DNA of 64,000 nt from an uncultured Oscillospiraceae bacterium (GCA_949299455.1 CASGAN010000021.1:2886-66885); one strand, 5' to 3'. Positions 11,550 to 42,837 are shown, counted from the first letter of the stretch. Made by a program: numbers and translations. The notes: generated by a model from the sequence alone, not told the origin.

Positions 11550-11574
11550 CAATCAATGATCGGAGGCGAGTTCT

Positions 11575-12807: not shown

Positions 12808-12845
12808 AAACAAGCACGGTACCAAACAACAAGGAGGCGAGTTCT

Positions 12846-14072
12846 ATGAAAAAAGCAATTTCTCTTTTCCTGATTCTCTGCATCAGTACAGTGTTATTAA
12901 GCGCATGCAGCCCGCCCATCCCTACGACCGATACATACGAAAAGGATTATGATGTACAAAATAGATTTGGCGATGGAGGAGAATTTCGGATGTGTGCCTC
13001 AGACGACAGCTATTATTATTTAGCGCCGACCGGAATAATCTACATCATTGACAAACAAACGCTCAACTGTGTACCGTTTTGCAGCAAACCGAACTGCAAG
13101 CACAATAACGCGCAGTGCACAGCACGCACCCGCTCGCAAGGACTCTGGATGTATCAAAATGCGCTCTATGTATCCGAGCCACGCGAAGACACGACAACAG
13201 AAACAAATGAGTTAGAATCGTACACACTTTATAAAATCTCATTGGATGGAACCGCCAAAGATGAAGTGCGACGTGTCGGAATGAATTTAATGGGGGGATT
13301 TATCCACCGCGGATATTACTATGCAAATGAATTTGACGGTGTAAGAAGATATTCTTTGACGGATAAAGAAGAAAATGAACTGATTTTTGAAATTGTTAAA
13401 TCAAATAGTAACTATTCCATCTGTTCTGCATACGGGAACCGTCTGTATATCAGTTACAACGACACTGAAATCATTGATGAAACATTTCAAGTGAACATTG
13501 GTGATTGGGATTCTCCCGCTTTAATTTGCGATATCACACGTTCTGACAGCACGGATAAAACGCGCATACAGTATGACTACATCAGTTCATACGGCGAAGA
13601 TCTTGTCATGATGAACGTGTCCACGCATACTGATTTTTCCAAACTATACAGCGCTTCTGTGTCGATCACAGACCGGGACGGAAAAAACGAACAGGTACTC
13701 GATTATATTCAATCTGATCTGGAAACAACGATGTTCGGCAGTGTTTCGATTGACGATCAATACTGCTATCAGCTGTATACCCCGCCGATCACCGGATCAA
13801 AAGAATCGTGGCAAAAATCCGCTTTGATCACTTATGACCGCGAATCGGAAGAAAAAGTCGAAGAAATCCCCATGTTTGAACAGTACGGAAATCCATGTGC
13901 ACTATATACAGGAGATGAACGGTATCTGTTTTTAGAATTTGAACCGGGAACATACTATGAAAACGGAGAATATATCACCGTTTCTGACACCTACCGTACA
14001 CTGTATATTCTCGACAAACAGCAAATCGGAAAAGGTGCCAAACTTCAGAAGCTTCTGCATTTAACAAAGTAA
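12846..14072 (+). CDS. lipoprotein, paralogue 2
   Basis: ORF 12738..14072 is trimmed to ATG 12846, which has the same RBS context as paralogue 1 (GGAGGCGAGTTCTATGAAAAAAGCAATTTCTCT). Lipobox LLSAC. The N-terminal ~180 aa and the C-terminal ~30 aa are nearly identical to paralogue 1, and the centre is divergent. Confidence 0.75.
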   Translation: MKKAISLFLILCISTVLLSACSPPIPTTDTYEKDYDVQNRFGDGGEFRMCASDDSYYYLAPTGIIYIIDKQTLNCVPFCSKPNCKHNNAQCTARTRSQGLWMYQNALYVSEPREDTTTETNELESYTLYKISLDGTAKDEVRRVGMNLMGGFIHRGYYYANEFDGVRRYSLTDKEENELIFEIVKSNSNYSICSAYGNRLYISYNDTEIIDETFQVNIGDWDSPALICDITRSDSTDKTRIQYDYISSYGEDLVMMNVSTHTDFSKLYSASVSITDRDGKNEQVLDYIQSDLETTMFGSVSIDDQYCYQLYTPPITGSKESWQKSALITYDRESEEKVEEIPMFEQYGNPCALYTGDERYLFLEFEPGTYYENGEYITVSDTYRTLYILDKQQIGKGAKLQKLLHLTK

Positions 14073-14105
14073 AACAAAAACACTGCATGAAAGCAGGTGA
14101 TGCAA

Positions 14106-29402: not shown

Positions 29403-29546
29403 CAGAAAAACTGCGAGAAACAGTATAGCACAAGTACGCGCTCGTTTCTATCCGCATTCTGCACAAAAATATACCCTGCGGCATGATATGCAAAGTTCTA
29501 TTCACTGCTGCAAAACTTACTTCATGCAGTTTGCTTATACTGCAAG

Positions 29547-29581
29547 CAAAAAAGACGCCGCAAGTTTTGCGGCGTCTTTTT
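29547..29581 (-). terminator. native rho-independent terminator of the GGGtGRT gene, now separated from the gene by the island
   Basis: An 8-bp GC-rich stem GACGCCGC / GCGGCGTC is flanked by an A-run and a T-run, 12 nt outside the left 99-bp repeat. Confidence 0.75.
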
Positions 29582-29593
29582 ATGATCGTTTGT

Positions 29594-29692
29594 TTTCAAA
29601 GAAACAATTATTTCAGTGCTTCTTCGACAGCAACTGCACAAGCAACGGTTGCACCAACCATCGGGTTATTGCCCATGCCCATGAGGCCCATC
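29594..29692. repeat. left 99-bp direct repeat (attL-like)
   Basis: Base-for-base identical to 37428-37526 by manual comparison. Confidence 0.95.
29608..29690 (-). pseudogene. displaced 3'-terminal fragment of the GGGtGRT gene (27 codons + stop) inside the left repeat
   Basis: The minus strand reads ATGGGCCTCATGGGCATGGGCAATAAC...GAAGAAGCACTGAAATAA, which translates to MGLMGMGNNPMVGATVACAVAVEEALK*. Its codon usage matches the gene body. Confidence 0.7.
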
Positions 29693-29802
29693 AATGCCAG
29701 TACTTACGGGGGTTGCGCTTGTGCTACGCTAAAAAGCTAAACACATCATTCTATTTATTTTATAAGCAAAATGCCGGTGTATATACTCTTTACAAGCCGG
29801 AT

Positions 29803-30423
29803 TTAATTGTTTTCTTCAGTAAGTTTCACCAACTTATAAAAGCTGGTGCGTTTGGTTTGCGTTTGTTCCATTGCAGTTTTAGCGGTGATAGTCCCCGCTT
29901 TCCAAGAAGAATAGATTTCTTTCCAATTGTTAGGGAATTGCAAAGCGGGACGTCCTAATATTTTGCCCTTTGCCTTTGCCGCTTTTATTCCTTCTGCTTG
30001 CCGCTTGCGTATAATTTCGCGTTCCTGCTCTGCAATAGTTCCCAAGACTTCAATCAGAACGTTATTCACCATTTCAAAAACCCATTTTTGACCTTCTGGT
30101 AGTTCCATCATAGTGGTCGGTAAATCAATCACTTTTAAGCGGATTTGGTTATCTTTGAAAAACTGCAACTCATTCTTAATGTCTGATTTGTTTCGGCTTA
30201 AACGGTCAAGGGATTTAATCACAAGAGTATCGCCGCGCCGCAACATGGCATTTTTAAGTGCTTGATATCCTATCCTTTCCAAGTCCTTGCCACTTTCTTT
30301 ATCGGTGATAATATCCCTCTCTTGTGCGCCTAGCGCCTTAAATGCGGCAATCTGACGGTCAAGATTCTGTTCCTTACTTGAAACTCTCGCATAATAATAG
30401 GTTCTGCTTTCCAATCTATTCAC
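29803..30423 (-). CDS. small serine recombinase (resolvase/invertase family) with C-terminal HTH
   Basis: 206 aa with YYARVSSKEQNLDRQ (catalytic Ser motif), LVIKSLDRLSRN and a C-terminal HTH-like TAKTAMEQTQTKRTSFYKL. Confidence 0.85.
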   Translation of the reverse strand: MNRLESRTYYYARVSSKEQNLDRQIAAFKALGAQERDIITDKESGKDLERIGYQALKNAMLRRGDTLVIKSLDRLSRNKSDIKNELQFFKDNQIRLKVIDLPTTMMELPEGQKWVFEMVNNVLIEVLGTIAEQEREIIRKRQAEGIKAAKAKGKILGRPALQFPNNWKEIYSSWKAGTITAKTAMEQTQTKRTSFYKLVKLTEENN

Positions 30424-30456
30424 CTCCTTTCTGACTTGTTTTTATTATTCCACAAC

Positions 30457-30517
30457 TATTCGTAAAAGTCAATATATTTACGAATATATTTGTAAATTAA
30501 AATCTATATTTTACGAA
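30457..30517. promoter_or_regulatory. res/hix-like recombinase binding sites upstream of the serine recombinase gene
   Basis: A perfect 10-bp inverted repeat TATTCGTAAA-N10-TTTACGAATA (30457-30486) is followed by an imperfect one, TTTGTAAA-N13-TTTACGAA (30489-30517). A further half-site-like TTTAACGAAC lies at about 30559. Confidence 0.5.
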
Positions 30518-30957
30518 CAAATAAACAGAATTGTTTTTATATATCCGCAAAGGTGTACTTTAACGAACGCTTTAATAAAATAACAACTTTTAACATCTTC
30601 AAGTAACTTCTAAAGATTTCTGTTCGTCTTCCTGCAACTATCAACGACTATGCAAGAAAAAATAACAACTAATAAATAAAAGCAGTCACCAAACACTTTG
30701 AAAATGCCGGCGGTTTTTCATATGAAAAATTTTTCTTATTATAAGAAATCGCAAAATGATGCGCAGCCATATGCCGATAAACCCAGTAACCATGCGGGTT
30801 TGCGGGCTTTTTCTGAACGTCTAAATTCTTTCATTTTTCAGGGGCAGAATCTTGCATAGTATATACGCTATAATATAGTCACAGCAAAGGGAAAGGCGCC
30901 TTCCTTAAGCGGTACAAAATAAAGGGTAGCGACCAACCGCCGAAAGGAGCAATCTCT

Positions 30958-31407
30958 ATGAAAAACACAAATAATTATACTGTTGATTTTATGAATAAAA
31001 CTATTATTGTATCGAAGACATTTTACAAGAAAGCAATAAGCAGTATCAACAATACCGAATATACCGAATTGAAAGTCTTGATTACCGATTATCCTAAATA
31101 TAAAATCAAATTGCGGGAAATCAAGAGAAAGGAAGGAAAAAAAACAAATCGTAATTTAACGTATAGCAATATGAAGAAGTATATTACTGAAAGTGTCACT
31201 GATGCAAAAGCAGATCTTGCCGAATTTGAAAAGGTACAAAAGACTTCCTGTGTGTTTCCTTCGCCTTATGTCTATGTTAAGGACTGGTTTACTAAGAAAT
31301 ATCCCGAATACGGAAAGTGGCTTGAACAGTTATCAAAAGAGAAAGAGCAAAAGACAAAAGAAACTGAGGAACAGACCGTTTCTATTGAATCACTCACCAA
31401 AAATTAA
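30958..31407 (+). CDS. hypothetical basic protein, island paralogue A
   Basis: 149 aa with RBS AAAGGAG. Colinear blocks shared with the next ORF include NLTYSNMKKYI/GLTYEKMKKFI, EFEKV/QFEKV and VKDWF..YPEY/VKRWF..FPNY. Confidence 0.6.
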   Translation: MKNTNNYTVDFMNKTIIVSKTFYKKAISSINNTEYTELKVLITDYPKYKIKLREIKRKEGKKTNRNLTYSNMKKYITESVTDAKADLAEFEKVQKTSCVFPSPYVYVKDWFTKKYPEYGKWLEQLSKEKEQKTKETEEQTVSIESLTKN

Positions 31408-31430
31408 GAAATGGAAGGAAGTGTTAAATA

Positions 31431-31889
31431 ATGAAAAACGGATATAAGATTAATTTTGTGAGCGGGACTATTATCCTGACGAAAGCGTTTTGTACGCAAG
31501 CAAGTGAAAAAGGAAGCGAAGCATATAACACGCTTATGGGATTAAAAAATGAATTACCGCATATGCGCTTTATTACAAGAAACGCAGCAAGGAAAACACG
31601 CGGACTAACTTATGAGAAAATGAAGAAATTTATCGCGTGCCAAAATGATTCTGACGTTCTCTTGATTCAGTTCGAAAAAGTAAAGGAATTGGCAAAAGGG
31701 CAAGGCGGTAACGCCTATCAAAATGTAAAGAGATGGTTTATGCAAACCTTCCCCAATTACAAAGATATTCCTTCTTTTGACGAAGTGGGTAACCTAACAA
31801 GTGATTTTGGAAGGAAACCGCAAACAAGGATATTCCCTATAGAGCAAACTGTACCAGCAGAAAAGCGGGAAGAACAGAAAACCGCATGA
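31431..31889 (+). CDS. hypothetical basic protein, island paralogue B
   Basis: 152 aa and a paralogue of 30958..31407. No family was recognised. Confidence 0.6.
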   Translation: MKNGYKINFVSGTIILTKAFCTQASEKGSEAYNTLMGLKNELPHMRFITRNAARKTRGLTYEKMKKFIACQNDSDVLLIQFEKVKELAKGQGGNAYQNVKRWFMQTFPNYKDIPSFDEVGNLTSDFGRKPQTRIFPIEQTVPAEKREEQKTA

Positions 31890-31895
31890 ATGAGA

Positions 31896-31944
31896 AACGA
31901 CGAAAGAGAGAAAAGCACAAATGGCTTTTCTCTCTTTCGTCGTT
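31896..31944. terminator. bidirectional terminator between convergent island genes
   Basis: A perfect 21-bp stem AACGACGAAAGAGAGAAAAGC / GCTTTTCTCTCTTTCGTCGTT with a 7-nt loop. Confidence 0.8.
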
Positions 31945-32276
31945 TATTTCCATTTCACAGTCATACCGTGCTTCTTAAATACTCTGTCCATTTCTTTTTC
32001 AAAGACATCTTTAATCATCTTTTCTGTGGTCTTTGCTACAGTACTTTTGACATCATAGTTAATATTGATTTGCGCGTTTTCAAGTTCCCTTAACTTAAAT
32101 GCTATTTCTTCATTGACAATTTGACGGATCATTTGTCTTAAATTAGTGTCGGCATATTCGTTTATCACTTTATTTGCAATATCAAACATTTCTTGTCGGT
32201 GTTCTTCTGCGTGACCACCGTGTATATCTTCATTCCGCATACGAAGTATGGCATTTACAAAGGTATCGTTGTTCAT
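31944..32276 (-). CDS. hypothetical 110-aa helical protein
   Basis: ORF with AGGTGAAAAATG-type RBS (GAGGTGAA upstream). No recognisable motif. Confidence 0.5.
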   Translation of the reverse strand: MNNDTFVNAILRMRNEDIHGGHAEEHRQEMFDIANKVINEYADTNLRQMIRQIVNEEIAFKLRELENAQININYDVKSTVAKTTEKMIKDVFEKEMDRVFKKHGMTVKWK

Positions 32277-32579
32277 TTTTCACCTCATATAGTATTCTGC
32301 TTGGAAGCAGAAAGAGAATTTATTATTTTTACTACTTAGAAGTAAGATAATGAACAACTTCTTATATTAAAAGCAATCATAATAAAAAGGGAGCGGGTAA
32401 GGTGGGGGAGGTTTTGGTATATGAAAAATATCGGTTTTATATTTTTTAAAATTCCCCACGCACATTGTCAGACCGAAATGCTTTTTGCTTTTCCAAATTT
32501 TAATTTTTGTAGTATATATCATATAAATTTTGGCACAATCAAAGCAATGCCAAAATTTAGAGAGTATTTATATAGATTA

Positions 32580-33803
32580 TTATAAATTGGCATCGTGTTC
32601 TGTGATAATGCGATACCTCTTATTATCTATTCTTATTTCTGTCACCTGATAGTGATTTTTTGTTAAGCGCTGTTCAAGTGAAGGCCATCCAATGACTCTA
32701 CCCTTATTATCCTTAACTTTTAGTTTTAAACATAGTTCTTTTCTCTCTTCAACAGATAAAGGTCTATCTAAATATTCGTCTGGCACGATTATTTCTGTAT
32801 CATAGTCCAGTACATATAACTTCTTTAAATCGTCCCGATACCGTCCGCGTACTTGCATACGCGTATCTTCTGTTCTGTCATGAACAAACATATAATCAAC
32901 TTGTCCCCGAATATTGATTCCTGTTTCGCAACTAGCGTTAATGAGAAGTACGTCAATATCTGGTGGCAGTTTCTCTTTCTCTATAATATAGCGCCGTACA
33001 TTATCCTGTTCATCAGTCATTTTATGATCTTTACTCTGTGTGCTCCAAATAGCGCTACATTTGCTAATGCCCTTTTCTTTTATCTTTTCCCATAGTTGTT
33101 TCATTTGAGTAATACTTTTGACATAAACAATTACTTTATCACCTTCTTGAATGGTGTCAACAATATAATTTATATCATTGTATTTGATAGTTTCGAAAGT
33201 TTCATACTGGCGCACATCCGGGTCAACCGGAATATAGTGGACTTTATCCTGGAAAAAATATTTTTCAGTAATAGCGGGTGTTGCAGATAACCCAACTATT
33301 TTGACATTAGAGTGATCTATTAACTCTCCCAATCTCTGAACTGCCTTTAAAGTATATTGCCCATCACTACTGTCTTCATTTTTATATGAAGTCATGCGAA
33401 TTCCCTGATGGATTTCATCACAAATAATCGCTTCAAACTGATAACCGAAATTTGGGATTTTATTCGTTAAAGCTCCAAATTTGGCATAGGTGATTACAAT
33501 GATTTTATCTTCATCATAAAAGTCATATTCGCCAATAACGCGTTGCGGCCGATTTCCTTGTTTTACAAAATTTTCCCACTCATGACTATATGCCGTGGTA
33601 TTTGGATTCTTCAAAATTTGATCGCGCCCGTTTGTAGTATCAATCACATAAAGATATTTGCTGTTTCTGCTTGCTATTTTCGTAAGGCGTCCCAATGCAA
33701 AGGTTGTTTTACCACTACCGCAAGGTGCTTTTATTACGTTAAATATTCCACTTTTAATGTCACTGATATCTACTGCTTCTGAAAGCCACTTTGTACCCTT
33801 CAT
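32580..33803 (-). CDS. compact SF2 (DExH-type) helicase
   Basis: 407 aa with motif I APCGSGKTT at residues ~26-34, motif II IICDEIH, motif III GLSATP and motif VI QVRGRYRD. There is no extra N-terminal domain, and a ~70-aa C-terminal tail. Confidence 0.8.
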   Translation of the reverse strand: MKGTKWLSEAVDISDIKSGIFNVIKAPCGSGKTTFALGRLTKIASRNSKYLYVIDTTNGRDQILKNPNTTAYSHEWENFVKQGNRPQRVIGEYDFYDEDKIIVITYAKFGALTNKIPNFGYQFEAIICDEIHQGIRMTSYKNEDSSDGQYTLKAVQRLGELIDHSNVKIVGLSATPAITEKYFFQDKVHYIPVDPDVRQYETFETIKYNDINYIVDTIQEGDKVIVYVKSITQMKQLWEKIKEKGISKCSAIWSTQSKDHKMTDEQDNVRRYIIEKEKLPPDIDVLLINASCETGINIRGQVDYMFVHDRTEDTRMQVRGRYRDDLKKLYVLDYDTEIIVPDEYLDRPLSVEERKELCLKLKVKDNKGRVIGWPSLEQRLTKNHYQVTEIRIDNKRYRIITEHDANL

Positions 33804-33850
33804 TAAATTTTCAGTCCTTTCTAAATTTTAATTGTCATTAAAAATAAAAT

Positions 33851-33875
33851 GAAGCAGTACATTTTGCACTGCTTC
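33851..33875 (-). terminator. terminator-like hairpin within the helicase 5' leader
   Basis: On the minus strand, GAAGCAGT-N9-ACTGCTTC is followed by ATTTTATTTTT. It lies between the TTGAAA-17-TATAAT promoter (33937-33909) and the ATG at 33803. Confidence 0.5.
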
Positions 33876-33908
33876 TTGAAACAACTATCCATTGTTTCTC
33901 TCTTGTTT

Positions 33909-33937
33909 TTCTGTATACATTATACAATAAATTCGGC
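33909..33937 (-). promoter_or_regulatory. sigma-A promoter for the helicase gene (TTGAAA-17-TATAAT)
   Basis: Minus strand: TTGAAA (33937-33932), a 17-nt spacer, then TATAAT (33914-33909). Confidence 0.55.
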
Positions 33938-34009
33938 GCATTTTCAAATTTTAACTGTATAATAATTACAAAAATAGCGGGTGCCTTCTACAGCAACAGG
34001 ATACAATTG

Positions 34010-34046
34010 GGCACAAAAAAGAAGAAAAGCCTCCCACAAGGGAGGC
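34010..34046 (-). terminator. rho-independent terminator after the zinc-ribbon gene
   Basis: On the minus strand, GCCTCCC-TTGT-GGGAGGC is followed by TTTTCTTCTTTTTT. Confidence 0.8.
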
Positions 34047-34066
34047 AGTAATAATAAATTATTGTA

Positions 34067-34468
34067 TCAATCTGCATCAATAAAGTCTACGCGTTGCAAT
34101 TCCATAACTGTTTTCATAACTCCCTGACGAGTGTGAACGCTGTATTTTTTACCTTTTGAGGGATCAATAATACCACTGCATTTACCCCCATAATACATTG
34201 CACTCATTTTATATTGAATTTCAACAGACGTTGGACCGTTAAAAAATACTTCTGCTATTTGTCCAACTAAACCTTCCCAAACAAGTTTTCCATTTGCCCA
34301 CATGAAAGCTTTCTGTTTGCCGCCAAAAGCTCCTCTTTGTAACGCTGTCATTTTGATTTGACATACTCCATCAGGTTTTAGCGCTTGAATTGGGTATGCA
34401 CAATTCGGGCAGACCGCTGCTTTATCAGATACTTCTTTCCCGCATTCTGGGCATTTGATCATTGCCAT
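34067..34468 (-). CDS. zinc-ribbon domain protein with a C-terminal ~100-aa beta-rich domain
   Basis: 133 aa with an N-terminal CPECGKEVSDKAAVCPNC (Cys4 ribbon). Its start overlaps the stop of the upstream membrane gene (TAATG), with AAGGAGG 8 nt upstream. Confidence 0.7.
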   Translation of the reverse strand: MAMIKCPECGKEVSDKAAVCPNCAYPIQALKPDGVCQIKMTALQRGAFGGKQKAFMWANGKLVWEGLVGQIAEVFFNGPTSVEIQYKMSAMYYGGKCSGIIDPSKGKKYSVHTRQGVMKTVMELQRVDFIDAD

Positions 34469-34788
34469 TAGATATTTCCTCCTTTATTTTCTGTGTTTTT
34501 CGCAATCTGTCCCAAGACCATATAATGTAGCCCCCAAAAATAAAATGGAACGCCTACGAGGCCAACTAAAACACCTAAATAAGTCAATACGACAAGAATG
34601 TTAACAAAACCATACTCAACATGAGCAGACAGGACATAAGGGGCAGCCTCGATTCCCCAACCCAAAATGGCGATCAAAAGAATCGAAAGAAAAATAGCAA
34701 GATCAATCCATAAAACTTTTATTAGATTGCCTCCAAGTCGATAAAATTTTTCACCCTTTTCGAGTACAAGCTCAGGTACATAGTTCAT
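34468..34788 (-). CDS. small integral membrane protein (2-3 TM helices)
   Basis: 106 aa with hydrophobic stretches VLWIDLAIFLSILLIAILGWGI and FVNILVVLTYLGVLVGLVGVPFYFWGL. RBS GAGGAGAG. Confidence 0.6.
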   Translation of the reverse strand: MNYVPELVLEKGEKFYRLGGNLIKVLWIDLAIFLSILLIAILGWGIEAAPYVLSAHVEYGFVNILVVLTYLGVLVGLVGVPFYFWGLHYMVLGQIAKNTENKGGNI

Positions 34789-34881
34789 TACAAATCTCTC
34801 CTCAATTTTTTAATTAACGTGTGCAAAATACTTTTATAGTAGACTAATACATATTTCCCCACGTCACTATTATAATATCAT

Positions 34882-34956
34882 GTTGCAAACAAAAATGCAA
34901 CTATAATAGTTTGCTTTTCGTGTTCTATATAAATGTATATAAAGCAACTATACTAT
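34882..34956. promoter_or_regulatory. operator-like repeats in the divergent island control region
   Basis: An inverted repeat GTTGCA-N8-TGCAAC (34882-34901), nested GCAAAC...GTTTGC, and a direct repeat GCAACTATA at 34897 and 34944. Confidence 0.45.
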
Positions 34957-34975
34957 AAACAGAGGTGATTGCTTT

Positions 34976-35167
34976 ATGAAAGAGAAGTTCGTGATAAAAC
35001 CCAAAACAACACGTTCTGTCACTATGACAATACGTATAGATAGGGAATTGAGCGATAAACTTGATGAGTTGGCGTTAAAAAGCAACCGTTCCCGTAATGA
35101 GTTAATCAATCTGTCATTGCGTTATGCTTTTGAGAATTTGGAGTTTATTGAAGAAGAAAATATTTAA
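34976..35167 (+). CDS. ribbon-helix-helix (CopG/Arc-type) DNA-binding protein
   Basis: 63 aa. VTMTIRIDRELSDKLDELALKSNRSRNELINLSLRYAF fits the beta-strand/helix/helix RHH pattern. Confidence 0.7.
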   Translation: MKEKFVIKPKTTRSVTMTIRIDRELSDKLDELALKSNRSRNELINLSLRYAFENLEFIEEENI

Positions 35168-35247
35168 GACAGTGGGTTTCATATTACTTGTTTTTTGTCC
35201 ATTATACTTTTATACTTAAAGTGTGAATCGAATAAAAAGGTGAGATT

Positions 35248-36264
35248 ATGGCAAGCAGACAGGAACGATTATTGCGTTTGAGGGAAATGTTCCTACAAGA
35301 AACAGACGAAAACCACTACATGACAATAGAAGAAATCGCCCGAAGGCTACAAGCAGATAGGCGCACCATAGAACTGGATATTGACGCACTAATACAATCG
35401 GGTATGGATATTGAAAAGAAACCCCGCCCGAAGTTGTCTTATGCTGTATTATCGCGCGATTTTACATTAGAGGAAATTAAGTTGTTGGTTGACTGTGTAC
35501 AAGTGTCAAAGTTCCTTTCCGAAAAGAAAACACAGGAATTATCAAAGAAACTGTGCAACCTTCGCAGTAAACACGAAGCGGTGCAATTAAGCGGGCAAGT
35601 TCGCCGTAACCATATTAAAAGCGGAAACGAAGGAATTTATCTTCATATTGATATGGTACATAGAGCGATTGCAGAAAAACTGTTTTTGACCTTTCAATAT
35701 ACGGAATATCTACCTACAAAAGAAAAGCGGGCGCAGCATAACGGTAAAATTTATATTGTACTTCCAGGCATGCTGATTTATGCAGAAGAAAATTATTATC
35801 TGCTTGCTGAAGAAATAGAATTTAATAGGCGTTCTATTAAGCATTTTCGACTTGATCGAATGGAAAAGGTTGATACTCTGAATTGCTATAATGGAACAAA
35901 ATCTAAATATTACAGTGCTCCCCATATTCAAGATATAGAGAATTACACAAATCAAAATTTTTCCATGTACGGCGGGGAGGTGGAGCGGGTAACAATTCAG
36001 TTCCCCAATTATTTAGCAGGGGTGGTCTTTGACCGTTTCGGTATGGGCGTACATATTGTGCAAACAGACAAAGAACATTTTCAAATAACGGAACCAATAG
36101 CAGTAAGTCCACAATTTTTTGGATGGGTGTTCGGCTTAGGAAAAGAAGTGAAAATCATAGGACCGAAGCACGTTGCTAAGGAAATGAAAGTCTTACTGAA
36201 AGATACCTATTCCGTTTATACTCTTCATCGCAACCGCAAGAAAAAAGCAGAAAGTTCTCAATAG
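35248..36264 (+). CDS. HTH-WYL-WCX transcriptional regulator (BrxR/CapW/PafBC-like architecture)
   Basis: 338 aa with an N-terminal wHTH (MTIEEIARRLQADRRTIELDIDAL) and a WYL core (NYYLLAEE...IKHFRLDRMEKV). It is colinear with the second WYL protein at 59241..60230. Confidence 0.75.
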   Translation: MASRQERLLRLREMFLQETDENHYMTIEEIARRLQADRRTIELDIDALIQSGMDIEKKPRPKLSYAVLSRDFTLEEIKLLVDCVQVSKFLSEKKTQELSKKLCNLRSKHEAVQLSGQVRRNHIKSGNEGIYLHIDMVHRAIAEKLFLTFQYTEYLPTKEKRAQHNGKIYIVLPGMLIYAEENYYLLAEEIEFNRRSIKHFRLDRMEKVDTLNCYNGTKSKYYSAPHIQDIENYTNQNFSMYGGEVERVTIQFPNYLAGVVFDRFGMGVHIVQTDKEHFQITEPIAVSPQFFGWVFGLGKEVKIIGPKHVAKEMKVLLKDTYSVYTLHRNRKKKAESSQ

Positions 36265-36349
36265 TTCTTAGAGAGAAACGGAAAGTTATCAAAAGTTATT
36301 TATTACTTCTTCCAAGTTGCCGCAAGTTCTTAAAAGATGTTAAAAAGAG

Positions 36350-36390
36350 AGGGCAAACCGATTGTTTTCGGTTTGCCCTTTACTTTTTGA
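36350..36390. terminator. bidirectional terminator between the WYL gene and the integrase gene
   Basis: An 11-bp stem AGGGCAAACCG / CGGTTTGCCCT is followed by TTACTTTTTG. Confidence 0.8.
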
Positions 36391-36395
36391 TTTAA

Positions 36396-37328
36396 TTACC
36401 GCATTTTAATTCCTTCCCGCTTAAATTCGCGTAAAATATTAAATTCTTCCACTTCCTTTTGAATATCACTTACGAGTAAATTAAGGTAATTTTGCGTAAT
36501 CGCAAGACTACTATGCCCTAATATTTTTTGAAGTGTTACGACGTTACCACCTATTAAAATCCATTTCTTTGCAAAAGTATGACGGTAACGGTGCATACCT
36601 GTCTTTTCAACGCCTCTGTTTTTGTTATACTCGTAAAAAGAATGATATACCGTTGACCTCACTAATTGCTTTCCGAACACATTGCAGAATAAATAATCTT
36701 CTGCATCTCCTTTACGATATTTTAAATATTCTTGCAGTATTTTTTTGATATCCGTATTTAAGGGGATAATGAGCGGCTTCCTGTTTTTTGTGACGTTGAT
36801 ATAGACAACTCCCGCGTCAAAATCTACATCTTTTATTTTGATATTGATAAGGCTGTGTTGTCGTACGCCAGTGGATAAAAGGAAATTTGTCATTACCCAT
36901 ACTTTGTACTCTGTAAAACTGCAATGTCGCAAATTCGGCTTTTTTAGAAGCACTTGCAATTCTCTGTCGGTGTATGTTTCTATTGGCTGTTTATCTACCT
37001 TTGGAATTTTAATTTTGAAAGTGGGGATATATTCTTTACGCATAAAGAAATACATCAAAGTTTTAAAGTCTCGCGCATAGGTGTATAAACTCATGTCGTT
37101 TAAGGCTGGATTCTCGCGTAACTGGACAATAAAATCGTCGATCATATTTTGGTCGATATCCTGTATCAACGTATTTTCTCCGATATATTTCAGAATCTGT
37201 TTTGTCGAATCGCTGTAATGCCGAAGTGTACCATTTCTTAAATTGCGTGCCTTACAATCTAAAATATATTCCTCGCACCCTTCCCCAAAAGTCCTGTCAT
37301 GTTCCACTGCCAATCTGATTTTTCCCAT
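36396..37328 (-). CDS. tyrosine-type site-specific integrase
   Basis: ORF 36396..37376 is trimmed to ATG 37328, because the upstream part overlaps a terminator hairpin. Contains a SAM-like N-domain, catalytic-region motifs GVRQHSL, HRYRHTFA and LGHSSLAITQNYL, and a candidate catalytic Tyr. Confidence 0.85.
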   Translation of the reverse strand: MGKIRLAVEHDRTFGEGCEEYILDCKARNLRNGTLRHYSDSTKQILKYIGENTLIQDIDQNMIDDFIVQLRENPALNDMSLYTYARDFKTLMYFFMRKEYIPTFKIKIPKVDKQPIETYTDRELQVLLKKPNLRHCSFTEYKVWVMTNFLLSTGVRQHSLINIKIKDVDFDAGVVYINVTKNRKPLIIPLNTDIKKILQEYLKYRKGDAEDYLFCNVFGKQLVRSTVYHSFYEYNKNRGVEKTGMHRYRHTFAKKWILIGGNVVTLQKILGHSSLAITQNYLNLLVSDIQKEVEEFNILREFKREGIKMR

Positions 37329-37356
37329 TTGATTTTCCTTTCCCCGGCATAAAAAA

Positions 37357-37400
37357 GTTGGACACGTCATTCGCATTTTGCTTAAAATGACGTGTCCAAC
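37357..37400 (-). terminator. island-borne replacement terminator just inside the right repeat
   Basis: A perfect 14-bp stem GTTGGACACGTCAT / ATGACGTGTCCAAC. On the minus strand it is followed by TTTTTT. It lies between the host gene stop and the integrase start. Confidence 0.75.
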
Positions 37401-37427
37401 GAATTTTTTAGAAAATCAATAGGTTCG

Positions 37428-37526
37428 TTTCAAAGAAACAATTATTTCAGTGCTTCTTCGACAGCAACTGCACAAGCAACGGTTGCACCAACCATCGGGT
37501 TATTGCCCATGCCCATGAGGCCCATC
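37428..37526. repeat. right 99-bp direct repeat (attR-like)
   Basis: Identical to 29594-29692. Confidence 0.95.
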
Positions 37527-38445
37527 CCATCATCTCAACGTGAGCCGGAACAGAGGACGAACCTGCGAACTGTGCGTCACCGTGCATACGACCCATGGAG
37601 TCGGTCAAGCCGTAAGAAGCCGGGCCTGCTGCCACGTTGTCCGGGTGCAGTGTACGGCCTGTGCCGCCGCCCGATGCAACAGAGAAGTATTTTTTGCCGT
37701 TTTCCATTGCCCATTTTTTGTAGGTGCCTGCAACCAGGTGCTGGAAGCGGGTCGGGTTGGTGGAGTTACCGGTGATGGAAACGTCAACTTTCTCTTTTTT
37801 CATGACTGCAACGCCTTCGAGCACGTCGTTTGCGCCGTAGCATTTAACAGCAGCTTTTTCGCCGTTCGAGAACGGAACTTCGCGGACAACGGTCAGTTCG
37901 CCGGTGCTGAAATCAAAGCTTGTCTCAACATAGGTGAAGCCGTTGATTCTCGAAATGATGTAAGCTGCGTCTTTGCCCAAACCGTTCAGGATGACACGGA
38001 GCGGAGTTTTACGAGCTTTGTTTGCAGTTCTTGCGATACCGATTGCGCCCTCAGCAGCAGCGAACGACTCGTGGCCTGCGAGGAAGCAGAAGCAGTCGGT
38101 CTCTTCGCGCAGCAGCATTGCGCCCAAGTTGCCGTGGCCCTGGCCAACGTTGCGCTGTTCAGCAACGGAGCCCGGAACACAGAATGCCTGCAGGCCGATG
38201 CCGATTGCCTCAGCAGCGTCAGCAGCTTTGTTTGCGCCTTTTTTCAGAGCAACAGCGGTGCCCAGTGTGTATGCCCAAACCGCATTTTCAAATGCGATCG
38301 GCTGAACACCTTTGACGATTTCTTCTACATTGATGCCTTTTTCCAGGCAGAAGTCTCTTGCTTCTTCGAGAGTAGCAAAGCCATACTCAGCGAGGCATTT
38401 CTCGATTTTCGGCATTCTTCTCTCTTTACCTTCAAATTGTGCCAT
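37447..38445 (-). CDS. GGGtGRT family protein (function unknown), with the C-terminal ~25 residues apparently out of frame
   Basis: 332 aa containing the name-giving SGGGTGRTLHPDN motif. After ...AHVEMMG the annotated frame gives a Trp-rich tail, WASWAWAITRWLVQ. The alternative frame gives MGLMGMGNNPMVGATVACAVAVEEALK with gene-like codon usage. Confidence 0.75.
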   Translation of the reverse strand: MAQFEGKERRMPKIEKCLAEYGFATLEEARDFCLEKGINVEEIVKGVQPIAFENAVWAYTLGTAVALKKGANKAADAAEAIGIGLQAFCVPGSVAEQRNVGQGHGNLGAMLLREETDCFCFLAGHESFAAAEGAIGIARTANKARKTPLRVILNGLGKDAAYIISRINGFTYVETSFDFSTGELTVVREVPFSNGEKAAVKCYGANDVLEGVAVMKKEKVDVSITGNSTNPTRFQHLVAGTYKKWAMENGKKYFSVASGGGTGRTLHPDNVAAGPASYGLTDSMGRMHGDAQFAGSSSVPAHVEMMGWASWAWAITRWLVQPLLVQLLSKKH

Positions 38446-38479
38446 GTGATAAAACCTCCTTGACTTACGTCTCTTTGTC

Positions 38480-39181
38480 TTATTCTTCGCGCGGATCGAT
38501 GAACTTCACTGCGCCATCAGCTTCGCTGAAGCGGCCGTAAGTACCGATGTTTTTCTCAAAAGCAGTTTTCGGGTCAACGCCGTGACGGATGTCTTCGAGC
38601 ATTTTGCCGAGTCTTACAAACTGATAGCCGATTGCTTCGCCGTTTGCGTCGATTGCAACTTTCAGGATATAGCCCTCAGCCATTTCCATGTAGCGAACGC
38701 CTTTTTTCTGAGTCGAGAAGATGGTGCCAACCTGCGAACGCAGACCTTTGCCCAAGTCCTCAAGACCAGCGCCGATCGGCAGACCGTCTTCAGAGAAAGC
38801 AGTCTGGGTTCTGCCGTAAACGAGCTGGAGGAAGATCTCTCTCATTGCAACGTTGATTGCGTCGCAGACGAGGTCGGTGTTGAGTGCTTCGAGGATGGTT
38901 TTGCCCGGGAGAATCTCGCCAGCCATAGCAGCCGAGTGGGTCATGCCGGAACATCCGAGTGTCTCAACGAGAGCCTCTTCGATGATGCCGTTTTTAACGT
39001 TCAAGGTCAGTTTGCAGGTGCCCTGCTGCGGTGCACACCAACCCACACCGTGGGACAGACCGGAAATATCGGTGATTTCGTAAGCTTTTACCCAGCGGCC
39101 TTCCTCCGGGATCGGGGCAGGACCGTGTTTGGGACCTTTTGTGAGAGTACACATTCTCTCAACTTCATGAGAATAGTTCAT
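38480..39181 (-). CDS. NifU/IscU N-terminal-domain-like Fe-S scaffold-type protein, partner of the GGGtGRT gene
   Basis: 233 aa with WCAPQQGTCKL...VETLGCSGMTHSAAMAGE, an IscU-like cysteine pattern. It lies immediately upstream in the same operon. Confidence 0.6.
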   Translation of the reverse strand: MNYSHEVERMCTLTKGPKHGPAPIPEEGRWVKAYEITDISGLSHGVGWCAPQQGTCKLTLNVKNGIIEEALVETLGCSGMTHSAAMAGEILPGKTILEALNTDLVCDAINVAMREIFLQLVYGRTQTAFSEDGLPIGAGLEDLGKGLRSQVGTIFSTQKKGVRYMEMAEGYILKVAIDANGEAIGYQFVRLGKMLEDIRHGVDPKTAFEKNIGTYGRFSEADGAVKFIDPREE

Positions 39182-39296
39182 ATTGCTGCTCCTTTCATTT
39201 GAACCATGTGGTCAAAATTGCATTTTTCACATCCGAAAAGCTGGATGTGCGCCGTATTTTGGTTAAATAAAAAATTCGGCGCAAATACACAGTTAT

Positions 39297-39325
39297 ATTA
39301 TAATCAATTTTGTCCATAAAAGCAA
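39297..39325 (-). promoter_or_regulatory. sigma-A promoter for the NifU-like/GGGtGRT operon (TTGCTT-17-TATAAT)
   Basis: Minus strand: TTGCTT (39325-39320), a 17-nt spacer, then TATAAT (39302-39297). The ~108-nt leader contains two hairpins. Confidence 0.55.
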
Positions 39326-39437
39326 GAGACAGGTGCAGCGGAATCATCATTTTTTGGCAGAAGATCGTTTTTTATCTGTCCGGCAAGGAAAAAAACGCGT
39401 TTATTTTCGTGAAAACTGAATATTAACAAAAAATGCC

Positions 39438-39466
39438 TTGCATCTTTTCTTGTGAAAAGATATAAT
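39438..39466 (+). promoter_or_regulatory. sigma-A promoter for secA (TTGCAT-17-TATAAT)
   Basis: TTGCAT at 39438-39443, a 17-nt spacer, then TATAAT at 39461-39466. Confidence 0.6.
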
Positions 39467-39502
39467 GAATAAGAATTGCGTAAACTGCTATGAGGTGAAG
39501 AT

Positions 39503-42259
39503 ATGTCATTTTTAGAAAAGATCTTCGGTTCCTACAGCAAAAAAGAACTTGCTCGCATCGAACCGATTAAGCAAAAGGTTTTGGATTTGGAAGAAACGTA
39601 TGCGGCAATGAGCACAAAAGAGCTCCAGTCGCAGACCGCAGTGCTCAAAGAGCGCTTGGCAGACGGCGAAACACTCGACGATATTCTGCCGGATGCGTTC
39701 GCTGTGTGTCGTGAGGCTGCATGGCGTACAATCGGCAAAAAGCCGTACCCAGTGCAGGTGATCGGCGGTATCGTGCTGCATCAGGGCCGTATCGCAGAAA
39801 TGAAAACCGGTGAAGGCAAAACGATCGTGGCAACCATGCCGGCGTACTTGAACGCGCTTGCAGGAAAAGGTGTCCACATCGTCACCGTCAACGAATACCT
39901 GGCACAGTATCAGTCCGAATGGATGGGTAAAATCTATAAATTCTTAGGTTTGAGTGTCGGACTGATCGTCCATGACATGACCACAGAGGAAAAACGCGCT
40001 GCATATGCTGCAGATATCACCTATGGCACAAACAACGAGATCGGCTTCGACTATCTGCGTGACAACATGGTGACTTATAAAGAGCGAATGGTACAGCGCG
40101 GATTCAACTATGCAATCGTCGACGAGGTGGACTCCATCTTGATCGATGAGGCGCGTACACCGCTCATTATTTCGGGTCCGGGCGAAAAATCGACCGAGCT
40201 TTACACCTTTGCAGACCGTTTTGCAAGAGGTCTGCGCGTGCATAAAGTGGTCGAAGAGGATACCAAACAGTTAAATGACGACGTCGATGCAGATTATATC
40301 GTGGACGAAAAAGCACGCACGGTATCGCTCACGCCGGAAGGTGTCAAGAAGGCAGAGGCATTTTTCCATGTGGAAAACCTTGCCGATCCGGAGAACCTGA
40401 CACTTCAGCATCACATCAACCAGGCAATCCGTGCATACGGCATCATGAAACGCGACGTCGACTACGTCGTAAAAGACGGTGAGATCATCATCGTTGACGA
40501 GTTCACCGGTCGTTTGATGATAGGACGCCGCTACAGCGAGGGACTGCATCAAGCAATCGAGGCAAAAGAAGGCGTGCAGGTCGCAAGAGAATCCCGTACA
40601 CTCGCAACCATTACGTTCCAGAACTACTTCCGGCTGTATGACAAGCTCTCCGGTATGACCGGTACGGCAATGACGGAGGAGCCGGAGTTTAACGAGATTT
40701 ATAATCTTGACATCATCGCCGTTCCGACAAATAAACCGATGATCCGAAAAGACTACGACGACGTGGTTTATAAAACAGAACGGGCAAAATTCAACGCTGT
40801 AATCGATCAGGTCATTGAGTGCCATGAAAAAGGCCAGCCGGTTCTGGTCGGTACCGTTTCGATCGACAAATCGGAACTGTTATCCGCAATGCTCAAACGC
40901 CGCGGCATCAAACACAACGTATTGAACGCAAAGCAGCATGCACGCGAGGCAGAGATCGTCGCACAGGCAGGCAAAAAAGGTGCTGTCACGATTGCAACCA
41001 ACATGGCAGGCCGTGGTACGGATATCCTGCTCGGCGGCAACGCAGAGTTTTTAGCTGTCGCACAGATGCGCAAAAAAGGATATACTGAGGAGCAGATTTC
41101 ACAGGCAACAAGCTACAGTGAAACAGACGATAAAGAAGTCATCCGTCTGCGGGAAGAGTATCATGCACTTGAGGATGAATTTGCAAAACAGATTGAACCG
41201 GAAGCAGAAGCTGTCCGTGAGGCAGGCGGCTTGTTCATTATCGGTACCGAACGTCATGAATCCCGCCGAATCGACAATCAGCTGCGCGGCCGTGCGGGCC
41301 GTCAGGGTGACCCGGGTGCCAGCCGGTTCTTCATCTCGCTCGAAGACGATCTGATGCGTCTGTTCGGCGGCGAACGGATTCAGGCAATGATGGATCGTTT
41401 GAATGTGGAAGAAGATCAGCCGATCGAAACCGGTCTGCTCACCCGTTCGATTGAGTCAGCACAGCGCAAGGTCGAGGACCGTAACTTCTCGATTCGTAAA
41501 CGCGTGCTCCAGTACGACGATGTGATGAATACACAGCGCGGCATCATTTACGGCCAGCGCCAGAAAGTGCTGAACAACGATAACCTGAAAGAGATCATTG
41601 AAGGCATGATCGACGAAGCAATCCGCAGTGATGTGGACATGTATTTAGCAGACGGCGATGTGCATGATGACTGGAATCTTGCTGGACTGCGCGATCATTA
41701 TCTCGGCTATCTGACCGGACCGGACGATTTGCAGTACAGTGTACAGGAACGTGCCGACATGGACAAAGACGATATCGCTTCGATGCTCGTGGAGCGTGCA
41801 ATGAAGCTGTATGAAGCGCGCGAAAAGGAATTCGGCGAGCAGATGATGCGTGAACTTGAACGTGTCGTCCTGCTCCGTACCGTTGACAGCAAATGGATCG
41901 AGCATATCGATGCGATGGACGAACTGAAACGCGGTATGGGACTTCGTTCGTATGGCCAGAAAGACCCGGTCATCGAATACCGTAACGAAGGATTTGACAT
42001 GTTTGACAACCTGATCGCCTCCATTCGCGAAGATACCGTCCGGCTCCTGCTGACCATCCGGATTCGTCAGCAGGAGCCGGTGAAACGCGAGCAGGTTGCA
42101 AATCCGACAACCGCATCCCACGGCGATCAGGACAAAGGTGTCAAACGTCAGCCGGTTCGAAAAACAAAAGTAGGCGATAACGATCCGTGTCCGTGCGGCA
42201 GCGGCAAAAAGTATAAAAAATGCTGCAAGCTGAAAGAAACCGCTTCGACAAATTCATAA
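39503..42259 (+). CDS. secA: preprotein translocase ATPase SecA
   Basis: 918 aa with MKTGEGKT and [19 protein letters not shown] motifs and a C-terminal zinc motif [13 protein letters not shown]. Confidence 0.95.
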
Positions 42260-42276
42260 GATAAGCAAAATTAAAA

Positions 42277-42307
42277 AGAAGCCTGTAAAAACAGGCTTCT
42301 TTTTTTG
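42277..42307. terminator. bidirectional rho-independent terminator after secA
   Basis: A 10-bp stem AGAAGCCTGT / ACAGGCTTCT with loop AAAA is followed by TTTTTTT. Confidence 0.85.
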
Positions 42308-42321
42308 ATTCATAAAAGTTA

Positions 42322-42837
42322 TCATGCATTTTCTATTCGGCGGACACCCGAGGGGGAAAAAACGATCAACGGTTTATTCATCTTTTTTGCATAGGCAATC
42401 GTGTTTTTCGTACCGCCCGGCTTTCCGTCATACACCGCAATCATATGATCCGCATGATCAACAATATACTGATTCCGATGCTGCATTGCGCGGTTTGTTT
42501 TTGCAATTTGCACATAGGTGATTCGCTGGGATGCCTCTAAAATGCGATGATATCGCAGCTGATCCTCCTGCCGCCAGTGCTGCGCCTGTTCCACATAGGG
42601 CACAGCGATTTCCAGATAAATATCCGGATACGCAGCCAAAAACGACAAAATAATCTCTGCTGCAAACGTATCTACACCCTGCGCACCGCCGCAGATAAAA
42701 TGACGCGTTCCATGCGCAAGCAAGTTCGCAATCTCTTCCCGCAGTGCATTTTTTAACGAAATACAATCCGGATGTGTTTCCTCTCGTTTATAAGGAAGTT
42801 TCGAAAAACGATAGCCGGTAAACCCGCAAACGCTCAT
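42322..42837 (-). CDS. SLOG-superfamily DUF1273 protein (YpsA-like)
   Basis: ORF 42322..42891 is trimmed to ATG 42837. Colinear with B. subtilis YpsA blocks: FTGYR, ICGGAQGVDTFAAE, YPDIYLEIAVPYVEQAQHW and MIAVYDGKPGGTKNT. Confidence 0.7.
   Translation of the reverse strand: MSVCGFTGYRFSKLPYKREETHPDCISLKNALREEIANLLAHGTRHFICGGAQGVDTFAAEIILSFLAAYPDIYLEIAVPYVEQAQHWRQEDQLRYHRILEASQRITYVQIAKTNRAMQHRNQYIVDHADHMIAVYDGKPGGTKNTIAYAKKMNKPLIVFSPSGVRRIENA

Follow-up and report, generated by a model that had tools for sequence, protein, structure and literature searches.

What lies between two copies of the end of a single gene? In a 64,000-nucleotide (nt) stretch of DNA from an uncultured Oscillospiraceae bacterium (hereafter the window), the end of the GGGtGRT gene occurs twice, and the two copies enclose 7.7 kb of AT-rich DNA. 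A sequence-only reading of the window had taken these copies for attL and attR, the attachment (att) sites of an integrated element, and comparison with related genomes supports that proposal. The interval is very probably an integrated site-specific genomic island, one of a family with a Xer-like tyrosine integrase that targets the end of GGGtGRT in gut Oscillospiraceae and Clostridia. As in other islands of tyrosine recombinases, we find direct repeats derived from the target, an integrase beside an att site and a precise empty site in relatives.

The two copies, at 29594-29692 and 37428-37526, agree at 99 of 99 positions, as claimed, and cannot be extended by one base on either side. We found no third copy within the window, and an exact match of 99 nt inside 64 kb is, in our judgement, far beyond chance. 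Both copies lie on the minus strand. The copy at 37428-37526 (attR) is contiguous with GGGtGRT and is probably the host's own gene end; the copy at 29594-29692 (attL) is distal from the gene, is followed by host downstream DNA and is probably the island-borne gene end. The 7,735 bp between them (29693-37427) encode ten proteins and have a GC content of 35.9%, against 46.2% in the 10 kb to the left and 49.2% in the 10 kb to the right, in keeping with the AT-richness seen in the sequence-only reading. Rfam and tRNA scans of 27-40 kb gave no matches. The earlier description of the repeat as the last 27 codons, the stop codon and 14 nt of the gene is correct for the native reading frame, in which it comprises 1 nt, 27 codons (MGLMGMGNNPMVGATVACAVAVEEALK), TAA and 14 nt, but not for the window's own gene, whose body enters the repeat out of frame.

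Same-species contigs, which we retrieved by exact-protein look-ups with the flanking QueT and NifU-like genes as queries, reveal what the site looks like without the island (the contigs and loci compared with the window are labeled L001-L113). At least five of them, 98-99.7% identical to the window's flanks, join GGGtGRT to QueT with a single repeat copy. On the gene side (44086-37428), L098 and the window are 99.70% identical, and on the QueT side (29693-23390) 99.43%; the two alignments share 100 nt at the lone repeat copy, which makes this a precise empty site. Contigs L082, L087, L089 and L090, from other sequencing runs, have the same structure. In L098, L082 and others, GGGtGRT is joined straight to its own terminator, the very arrangement that had been proposed as a check. 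The occupied state recurs as well: L081, from another sample, is the island alone on a separate contig of 7,827 bp with 0 mismatches to the window over 7,796 nt; L083, which shares its sample with L081, has the repeat together with the left flank, at 100% identity to the window; and L113 has the same island, 98.5% identical, in a host lineage that is 2% diverged. From the empty sites, L081 and L083 it follows that the repeats are not an assembly artifact and that the element is integrated in some strains and absent from near-identical ones. The length of the repeat does equal a common k-mer size, which would suit an origin of the repeats, and hence of the island, in assembly. All four junction types nevertheless occur in independent assemblies, namely empty (L098 and others), island left arm to repeat (L081, L102, L103), repeat to host (L083) and gene to repeat to island (L113, L001), and this refutes an artifact of the whole island, to which we give next to no probability.

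The repeat also contains a synonymous AAT/AAC polymorphism at its position 25 (window 29668 and 37502). The base is T in both window copies, L081 and L083, C in four of the six empty-site contigs (L082, L085, L087, L098) and T in L089 and L090. Homologous excision may have left behind the empty sites with T, or these may be ordinary single-nucleotide polymorphisms.

What did not hold up is 99 bp as the natural length of the repeat. The canonical island, as found in three samples (L081, L102, L103), is 7,756 bp with a 109-nt att repeat that consists of about the last 30 GGGtGRT codons, the stop codon and 14 nt of the 3' untranslated region (UTR). Its attL reads GGCATT, then TTTAGTTTAAAAGAAGGTTTTACGTTGAGAT, then GATGGG, so that 31 further nt precede the copy, 10 of which (ACGTTGAGAT) lengthen the homology to 109 nt. 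The window lacks these 31 nt at 29692..29693 (TTTAGTTTAAAAGAAGGTTTTACGTTGAGAT on the gene strand), and the 21-nt island part of the missing sequence occurs nowhere in it. At attR, the window has five extra bases at 37527-37531 on the minus strand (CCATC on the plus strand, a tandem GATGG/GATGG on the gene strand). When we compared the gene end with that of 16 GTDB relatives and all same-species contigs, these five bases were absent from 16/16 relatives and from every same-species contig; the relatives all read ...CAC GTT GAG ATG ATG GGC CTC ATG GGC... to ...GAA GCA CTG AAA TAA. Taken together, the 31 nt present in the three canonical copies and the five bases absent elsewhere put the natural homology at 109 nt. 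The five extra bases throw the last 25 codons of the window's GGGtGRT gene (37447-38445, minus strand) out of frame, and the product reads ...HVEMMG|WASWAWAITRWLVQPLLVQLLSKKH*. Its assignment to the GGGtGRT family (PF14057) is certain. A full-length profile match is absent from the frameshifted copy, which matches Pfam positions 1-305 of 327 (593.7 bits) compared with 1-327 of 327 (640.9 bits) for the intact L098 allele.

Both anomalies abut the first base of the 99-mer. The window junctions are GGCATT|GATGGGCC (31-nt loss) and GATGG|GATGGGCC (5-nt gain), with spanning sequences GATGGGATGGGCC and GGCATTGATGGGCC; without the two changes, ...GGTTTTACGTTGAGATGATGGGCC and ...CACGTTGAGATGATGGGCC would be expected. 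We lean slightly towards an assembly join artifact as their source. The homology ends 99 nt from the shared base, and it is at this base that the edges leaving a 109-nt repeat start in a de Bruijn graph of K=99 or k=100. One contig supports the changes, the frameshifted protein forms a one-member cluster, the canonical attL edge is found in three other samples, and the affected C-terminus is highly conserved in 16/16 relatives. A considerable chance, just short of even, goes to the alternative that both are real secondary mutations of this strain, with GGGtGRT truncated in function and the repeat cut from 109 to 99 nt. The 67,134-bp contig is deposited as such at NCBI and ENA, and the independent L081 and L083 match everything else in the island and the left flank at 100%, so errors are not a general feature of this contig. 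Moreover, assembly threads repeats only below its k, so long contigs would favor a variant with a shortened repeat. No further 99-nt repeats able to reveal assembler joins exist in the window. A 5-bp target-site duplication, made by insertion of a shortened circle at GATGG, formally fits the junctions, and we rejected it since it needs an enzyme that the island does not encode. Logan contig L086, which starts exactly at the first repeat base, might seem to back the 5-nt variant independently; we set it aside, since branching at a wobble site 30 nt downstream would account for its start just as well. The perfect 99-bp repeat and the apparent frameshift may be by-products of an assembler threading a 109-nt repeat, a caution that such repeat edges need read checks before a conserved gene is called a pseudogene.

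Which enzyme put the island here, and how faithful is it to this target? The gene next to attR (36396-37328, minus strand; start 100 nt from attR) encodes a Xer-like tyrosine integrase of 310 aa that matches PF00589 (7e-32, 111 bits). Pfam thereby confirms the integrase noticed near the right repeat, just as it confirms the small serine recombinase near the left one. The integrase is XerA/XerC/XerD-like in NCBIfam, its PDB matches are XerC-like 4a8e and XerA 5hxy, and the catalytic R..K..HxxR..H..Y residues are visible by inspection. A longer open reading frame (326 aa) starts at 37376, inside the hairpin described below; the product on record has 310 aa. As exact proteins, the window's integrase forms and its frameshifted GGGtGRT occur on no contig but the window's own. 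Right after GGGtGRT, related integrases (57-91% aa identity) are found in at least seven other species, 190-290 nt past the gene in L104 (91% aa), L107 (89%), L027 (78%) and L031, L052, L062 and L077 (57-60%). Those at least 88% identical to the window's directly follow the gene in L104/L105, L107 and L113, where the gene neighborhoods differ. Across the neighborhoods of 80 species-representative genomes that carry GGGtGRT, the site is occupied in five (L027, L031, L052, L062, L077). Gene-end repeats of about the last 30 codons, 89-97% identical over the aligned stretches, flank the islands of L104 (95 nt), L077 (93 nt) and L027, and L001 has an integrase remnant at the site.

What travels with these integrases is variable. 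The L104 island is a mosaic relative to that of the window, with identities of 91% for the integrase, 90% for the serine recombinase, 74% for a WYL regulator, 47% for a helicase and 33-47% for a pair of paralogues, and it has an additional Ser/Thr kinase. The L077 island shares just the integrase with the window island, and its cargo is a HEPN AbiU2 protein and an AAA_21 ATPase. The end of an abundant, uncharacterized gene is a recurrent site for small islands in gut Oscillospiraceae and Clostridia, and some islands at this hot spot carry abortive-infection genes. In the literature that names the gene, titles and abstract openings make no mention of integration at GGGtGRT (PF14057), and to that extent the target is an integration site not described before.

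Several loci of this family show features of their own. The sister island L077 2741-8034 is found in Ca. Fimenecus. Past its distal repeat, the DNA does not resemble what lies downstream in the sister species L076 and L073, a hint that a second element sits in tandem or that the region was rearranged. At L001 4990-5185, in a genome about 90% identical at the nucleotide level, an intact GGGtGRT precedes 173 nt that match the right arm of the island exactly, covering the hairpin and 24 initial int codons, and beyond them come unrelated genes; this stretch resembles either what a decayed island would leave behind or a chimeric contig. In L027, another occupied genome, a run of 54 N lies within the gene-proximal repeat copy (7177-7230), which indicates that this repeat breaks assemblies. 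A 61-nt 'insertion' in the attR of L027 was first read as a duplication and turned out to be a run of N.

Where within the repeat does strand exchange occur, and which copy belongs to whom? The presence of the same island in three host lineages is a natural experiment that allows the exchange to be located from sequence. It probably takes place within the last heptamer that the copies share, TTTGAAA, 8-14 nt past the stop codon (TTTCAAA on the plus strand, 37428-37434). In the window, L113 and L001, which represent the three lineages, host sequence switches to island sequence at TTTGAAA|CGAACC. L113 is 99.65% identical to its own lineage's empty site, L095, over 1,724 nt, up to ...GTTGGTTTTTTGAAA / ...AAATAAGTTGGTTTTTTGAAA; past the switch, L113 reads CGAACCTATTG and L095 reads TCAATGAATA. 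The window is host-type (as L098) to ...TTGTTTCTTTGAAA / ...AAATAATTGTTTCTTTGAAA and then continues with the same CGAACCTATTG (CGAACC) as L113, and L001, of the third lineage, has the same switch. The gene-proximal copy of L113 carries the host AAC, TGC and UTR variants, not the island AAT, TGT and UTR. In the L027 lineage, attL is followed by the host UTR known from relatives, and attR becomes island-type at the 3' edge of identity. The gene-proximal block of L077 agrees with the sister species L076 at 89/93 positions and the distal copy at 83/93. A host-type gene-proximal copy in three lineages suggests that this copy is host DNA and that the island-borne copy is the distal one. The model implied by the sequence-only reading, in which the island restores the 3' end of the gene, is at odds with the gene-proximal copy, whose sequence in the window, L113 and L001 stays host-type as far as TTTGAAA.

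Several points weigh against this placement. In L104 and L077, identity stops at the stop codon and not 14 nt beyond, and the exact exchange point may vary among family members. The crossover position is deduced from polymorphism, not from mapped cleavage. In four islands, the island-borne block stays in frame, its differences are mostly synonymous and its 5' boundary (ACGTNGARATGATGGG) is conserved; with exchange at the 3' edge, an in-frame gene-end copy of about 100 nt would serve the island no obvious role. A kept in-frame copy with a fixed 5' boundary is the pattern predicted if the island restores the 3' end. Integrases that target tRNA genes or gene 3' ends usually leave the order intact gene, int, displaced fragment, and a classical replacement of this kind would place the exchange at the gene-proximal repeat edge (~ATGATGGGC), with the gene-side copy island-borne and the distal one a displaced host fragment. 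This is the usual arrangement for such integrases, and it would account for the single codon at which the island-borne block starts across four islands, for the two copies in L104 and L077 that differ almost only at synonymous sites, and for the window's two junction anomalies, which fall exactly at the gene-proximal edge. We nonetheless regard replacement as improbable. The gene-proximal copies of L113, the window and L001 are host-like at every discriminating site, and the adjacent island DNA is identical or 98.5% identical; homologous exchange inside the block cannot bring host UTR beside the island's right arm; and in L077 it is the gene-proximal copy that is nearer to L076. Codon usage of the two L104 repeat copies against the host gene gave no discrimination. 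With exchange at TTTGAAA, the anomalies lie 99 nt from the crossover, and we no longer read them as recombinase scars. The idea that these lesions mark an integrase cleavage site at the repeat's 5' edge was likewise dropped, given that the switch between L113 and L095 is at the 3' edge.

The insertion parts GGGtGRT from its own terminator, which raises the question of how its transcript ends in an occupied strain. Two terminator hairpins had been proposed, and both fold as a hairpin followed by a U-run on the minus-strand transcript (folds were scored as free energy, dG, and as z against shuffles). The host's intrinsic terminator of GGGtGRT at 29547-29581 (minus strand; fold 29535-29595) has a dG of -24.1 and a z of -5.6. 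The island's hairpin and T-run, at 37357-37400 on the minus strand between attR and int (fold 37340-37415), has a dG of -28.1 and a z of -5.6. We found a hairpin and T-run between attR and int in all nine islands examined, and an alignment of eight distinct sequences shows compensatory changes at 6/15 stem pairs. This conservation upstream of int fits the earlier idea that the island supplies a replacement terminator and insulator.

Taken together, these observations are consistent with the following course of events. The circular form of the island would carry the copy of about 109 nt (the last 30 gene codons, the stop codon and 14 nt of 3' UTR), and strand exchange would occur at TTTGAAA, past the GGGtGRT stop codon. 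After integration, GGGtGRT would keep its own 3' end (attR), lose its own terminator and run into the island hairpin, which would shield int. The island-borne gene-end copy would end up at the far side (attL), beside the Sin-type serine resolvase. Int would both integrate and excise the island, which the RHH and WYL proteins would control. An excised, plasmid-like circle may be maintained by the helicase, the resolvase and the two paralogues; the genes for the small membrane and zinc-ribbon proteins may be cargo, and transfer would depend on some helper. The putative crossover heptamer is intact at both ends, so the island can possibly still excise. Against this picture, neither a circular (attP) junction nor an excisionase came to light. 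When JGI metagenomes were scanned for exact patterns of the repeat and of the island's right arm, and IMG/VR for that of the repeat, nothing matched; available assemblies collapse the repeat. The replication and cargo roles are guesses; the helicase is generic, and no relative of known function was detected for the paralogue pair.

We next consider the gene content from left to right, with the ten island proteins compared against Pfam, NCBIfam and PHROGs and, for defense models, PADLOC-DB 2.0. The small serine recombinase (29803-30423, minus strand) is of the Sin / gamma-delta resolvase type. It matches PF00239 (2e-29, 103 bits) over positions 2-144 of 145, shows the motif YARVSSKEQ by inspection and, at about 200 aa, has the size of the resolvase class; its PDB matches are Sin/Tn552 bin3 (5e-28) and gamma-delta resolvase (3e-17), and its PHROG is Phrog_125, DNA invertase. 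Upstream of this gene lies an AT-rich intergenic region of 530 bp (30424-30957) with short direct and inverted repeats, among them 23-nt direct repeats 95 nt apart and a 19-nt imperfect dyad, which might be a res site or an origin. The paralogous genes p149 (30958-31407) and p152 (31431-31889), on the plus strand, have no assigned function. They match no Pfam, PHROG or NCBIfam family, their 35 homologues are all unnamed, and the AlphaFold2 model of p152 (mean confidence score, pLDDT, 68) gave no fold match. A perfect 22-bp inverted repeat with a 7-nt loop (31895-31945) sits between the convergent genes for p152 and a 110-aa protein and resembles a bidirectional terminator; with a dG of -36.2 and a z of -9.4, its fold is stronger than both att-proximal hairpins. 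The 110-aa protein (31944-32276, minus strand) has sub-threshold matches only and a weak homologue in the L108 island.

The largest gene of this central region encodes a minimal superfamily 2 (SF2) helicase of 407 aa (32580-33803, minus strand; ResIII/DEAD). Its AlphaFold2 model has a pLDDT of 89 and generic fold matches only (DEAD-box/Lhr/NS3), and a weak match to the CyRepA1 plasmid-replication family is sub-threshold, at 34 bits against a cutoff of 200. The helicase family comprises 398 proteins and adjoins various integrases in the four islands whose neighbors were examined. Homologues with about 43% aa identity occur in other small islands (L108, L109, L110) beside unrelated 400-aa integrases, and one of these clusters has 542 member sequences, a hint that integrative elements with such helicases form a widespread class in gut metagenomes. 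The p149/p152 pair recurs with the helicase in L104 and L110, and the helicase, the pair and a WCX-type regulator also accompany unrelated integrases (L108, L110). We read all of these as backbone and not cargo because they travel with unrelated integrases. Further along, a 133-aa zinc-ribbon protein (Zn_Ribbon_1; 34067-34468) and an overlapping 106-aa protein (34468-34788), both on the minus strand, are probable variable cargo. The 106-aa protein we read as a putative membrane protein from its hydrophobic sequence. The slot holds different genes in L104, and the pair has no PADLOC match. On the plus strand, an RHH/CopG protein (RHH_1; 34976-35167) is followed by an HTH-WYL-WCX regulator (35248-36264; PADLOC WYL models, 7e-21), in which HTH_11 (16-60) and WYL (134-208) score above the gathering threshold and WCX (246-319) scores 23.2 bits, just under its gathering threshold of 23.9.

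What kind of mobile element do these genes make? The earlier judgement that this is not an obvious prophage or integrative and conjugative element (ICE) is sustained: the ten proteins include no capsid, terminase, portal, relaxase or type IV secretion genes in the three family collections, and the same searches gave no coupling protein and no structural or packaging PHROG. Similarity to phage DNA amounts to no more than an 85-nt stretch at 76.5% identity, and similarity to plasmid DNA is confined to the resolvase gene. PADLOC-DB 2.0 returned no defense system, with generic WYL and weak Cas3-like helicase matches only. It is rather unlikely, in our view, that the island is a phage satellite or an integrative and mobilizable element (IME) that exploits a helper phage or conjugative element for transfer. 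In favor of it, the island is small and possesses a terminal int, two regulators and a helicase; it has spread across species at the same site and has no transfer genes of its own. Of the features of a satellite of the phage-inducible chromosomal island or P4-like type, only the integrase and regulators fit. On the other hand, Pfam, PHROGs and NCBIfam revealed no relaxase, such as an IME may carry, and no primase, packaging or capsid-redirecting gene; the helicase is a generic SF2 protein, and the lack of DNA similarity to known phages and to plasmids outside the resolvase gene also weighs against this reading. In IMG/VR, single-protein scans with the helicase and the integrase were empty, and the helicase profile found one distant locus (L112) and no close relatives.

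Returning to the site-specific island as a family, we tentatively entertain a broader possibility: an undescribed family of small integrative elements of gut Clostridia whose plasmid-like circle carries anti-phage cargo into the GGGtGRT hot spot, and which keeps a 100-nt in-frame copy of the gene end on the side of the crossover from which the gene could not be restored. Its backbone would consist of the Xer-like Int, the terminator hairpin, the RHH and WYL regulators, the minimal SF2 helicase, the paired 150-aa proteins and the Sin-like resolvase. If this is true, the gene-end copy has a second use, for example as a recombinase-binding arm or in homology-assisted capture, or is continually refreshed by homologous excision.

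The surroundings of the island vary too. A block of about 5 kb with secA, the NifU-like gene and GGGtGRT with its terminator (37428-42259) is inverted relative to its neighbors between lineages, with breakpoints at about 29468-29548 and 42259-42347, at which we found no inverted repeats. GGGtGRT points to QueT, and secA to YpsA/CorA, in both the window and L098. Between those same neighbors, L092 and L093 (about 84-89% nucleotide identity to the window, depending on the segment) have the block in the opposite orientation, and in L094-L101 (94%) and L001 it is again YpsA/CorA/FtsZ that GGGtGRT faces. Beyond the 3' end of secA, the small genes of the 94% lineage (L095, L096, L099, L100) are different ones, among them those for a 331-aa protein, a metallophosphatase and a short YpsA-like protein, and a stretch of about 1.4 kb has no called genes; this region is a second variable spot. 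Elsewhere in the window, at 10757-11145, 11562-13132 and 12718-14074, there are diverged direct repeats (82-89% identical, 92-300 nt) unrelated to the island.

How does the island compare with systems already known? Its integrase resembles XerA, XerC/D and XerH, which give its best hidden Markov model and PDB matches, and like them it has core-binding and catalytic domains and no arm-binding N-terminal domain. It differs in scoring far under the equivalog cutoffs (142.6 against 220 bits for XerA) and, unlike the Xer chromosome dimer resolvases, it is island-encoded and island-specific. The serine recombinase has the size and domains of the Sin, gamma-delta and Tn3 resolvases and nucleotide similarity to recombinase genes of Priestia and Bacillus plasmids, but the island has no DDE transposase partner and no defined res site. 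Small defense islands offer a further parallel: the sister islands hold HEPN AbiU2 with AAA_21 (L077) or a Ser/Thr kinase (L104), and a WYL regulator is present. The window island itself, in contrast, has no PADLOC system match, and the company that the helicase and p149/p152 keep with several unrelated integrases suggests that they are backbone and not defense cargo.

There is also a likeness to the islands, IMEs and ICEs that occupy gene 3' ends. In streptococci, tyrosine-recombinase elements are found at the 3' ends of the conserved genes fda, rpsI, rpmG and guaA. In common with such elements, the window island has int beside one att site, repeats from the end of the target gene, presence/absence polymorphism and atypical composition, and its site specificity is common to a whole integrase family. 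It differs in having no relaxase or conjugation genes and in where strand exchange appears to fall: beyond the stop codon, so that the gene-end copy belonging to the element lies on the side that does not restore the gene.

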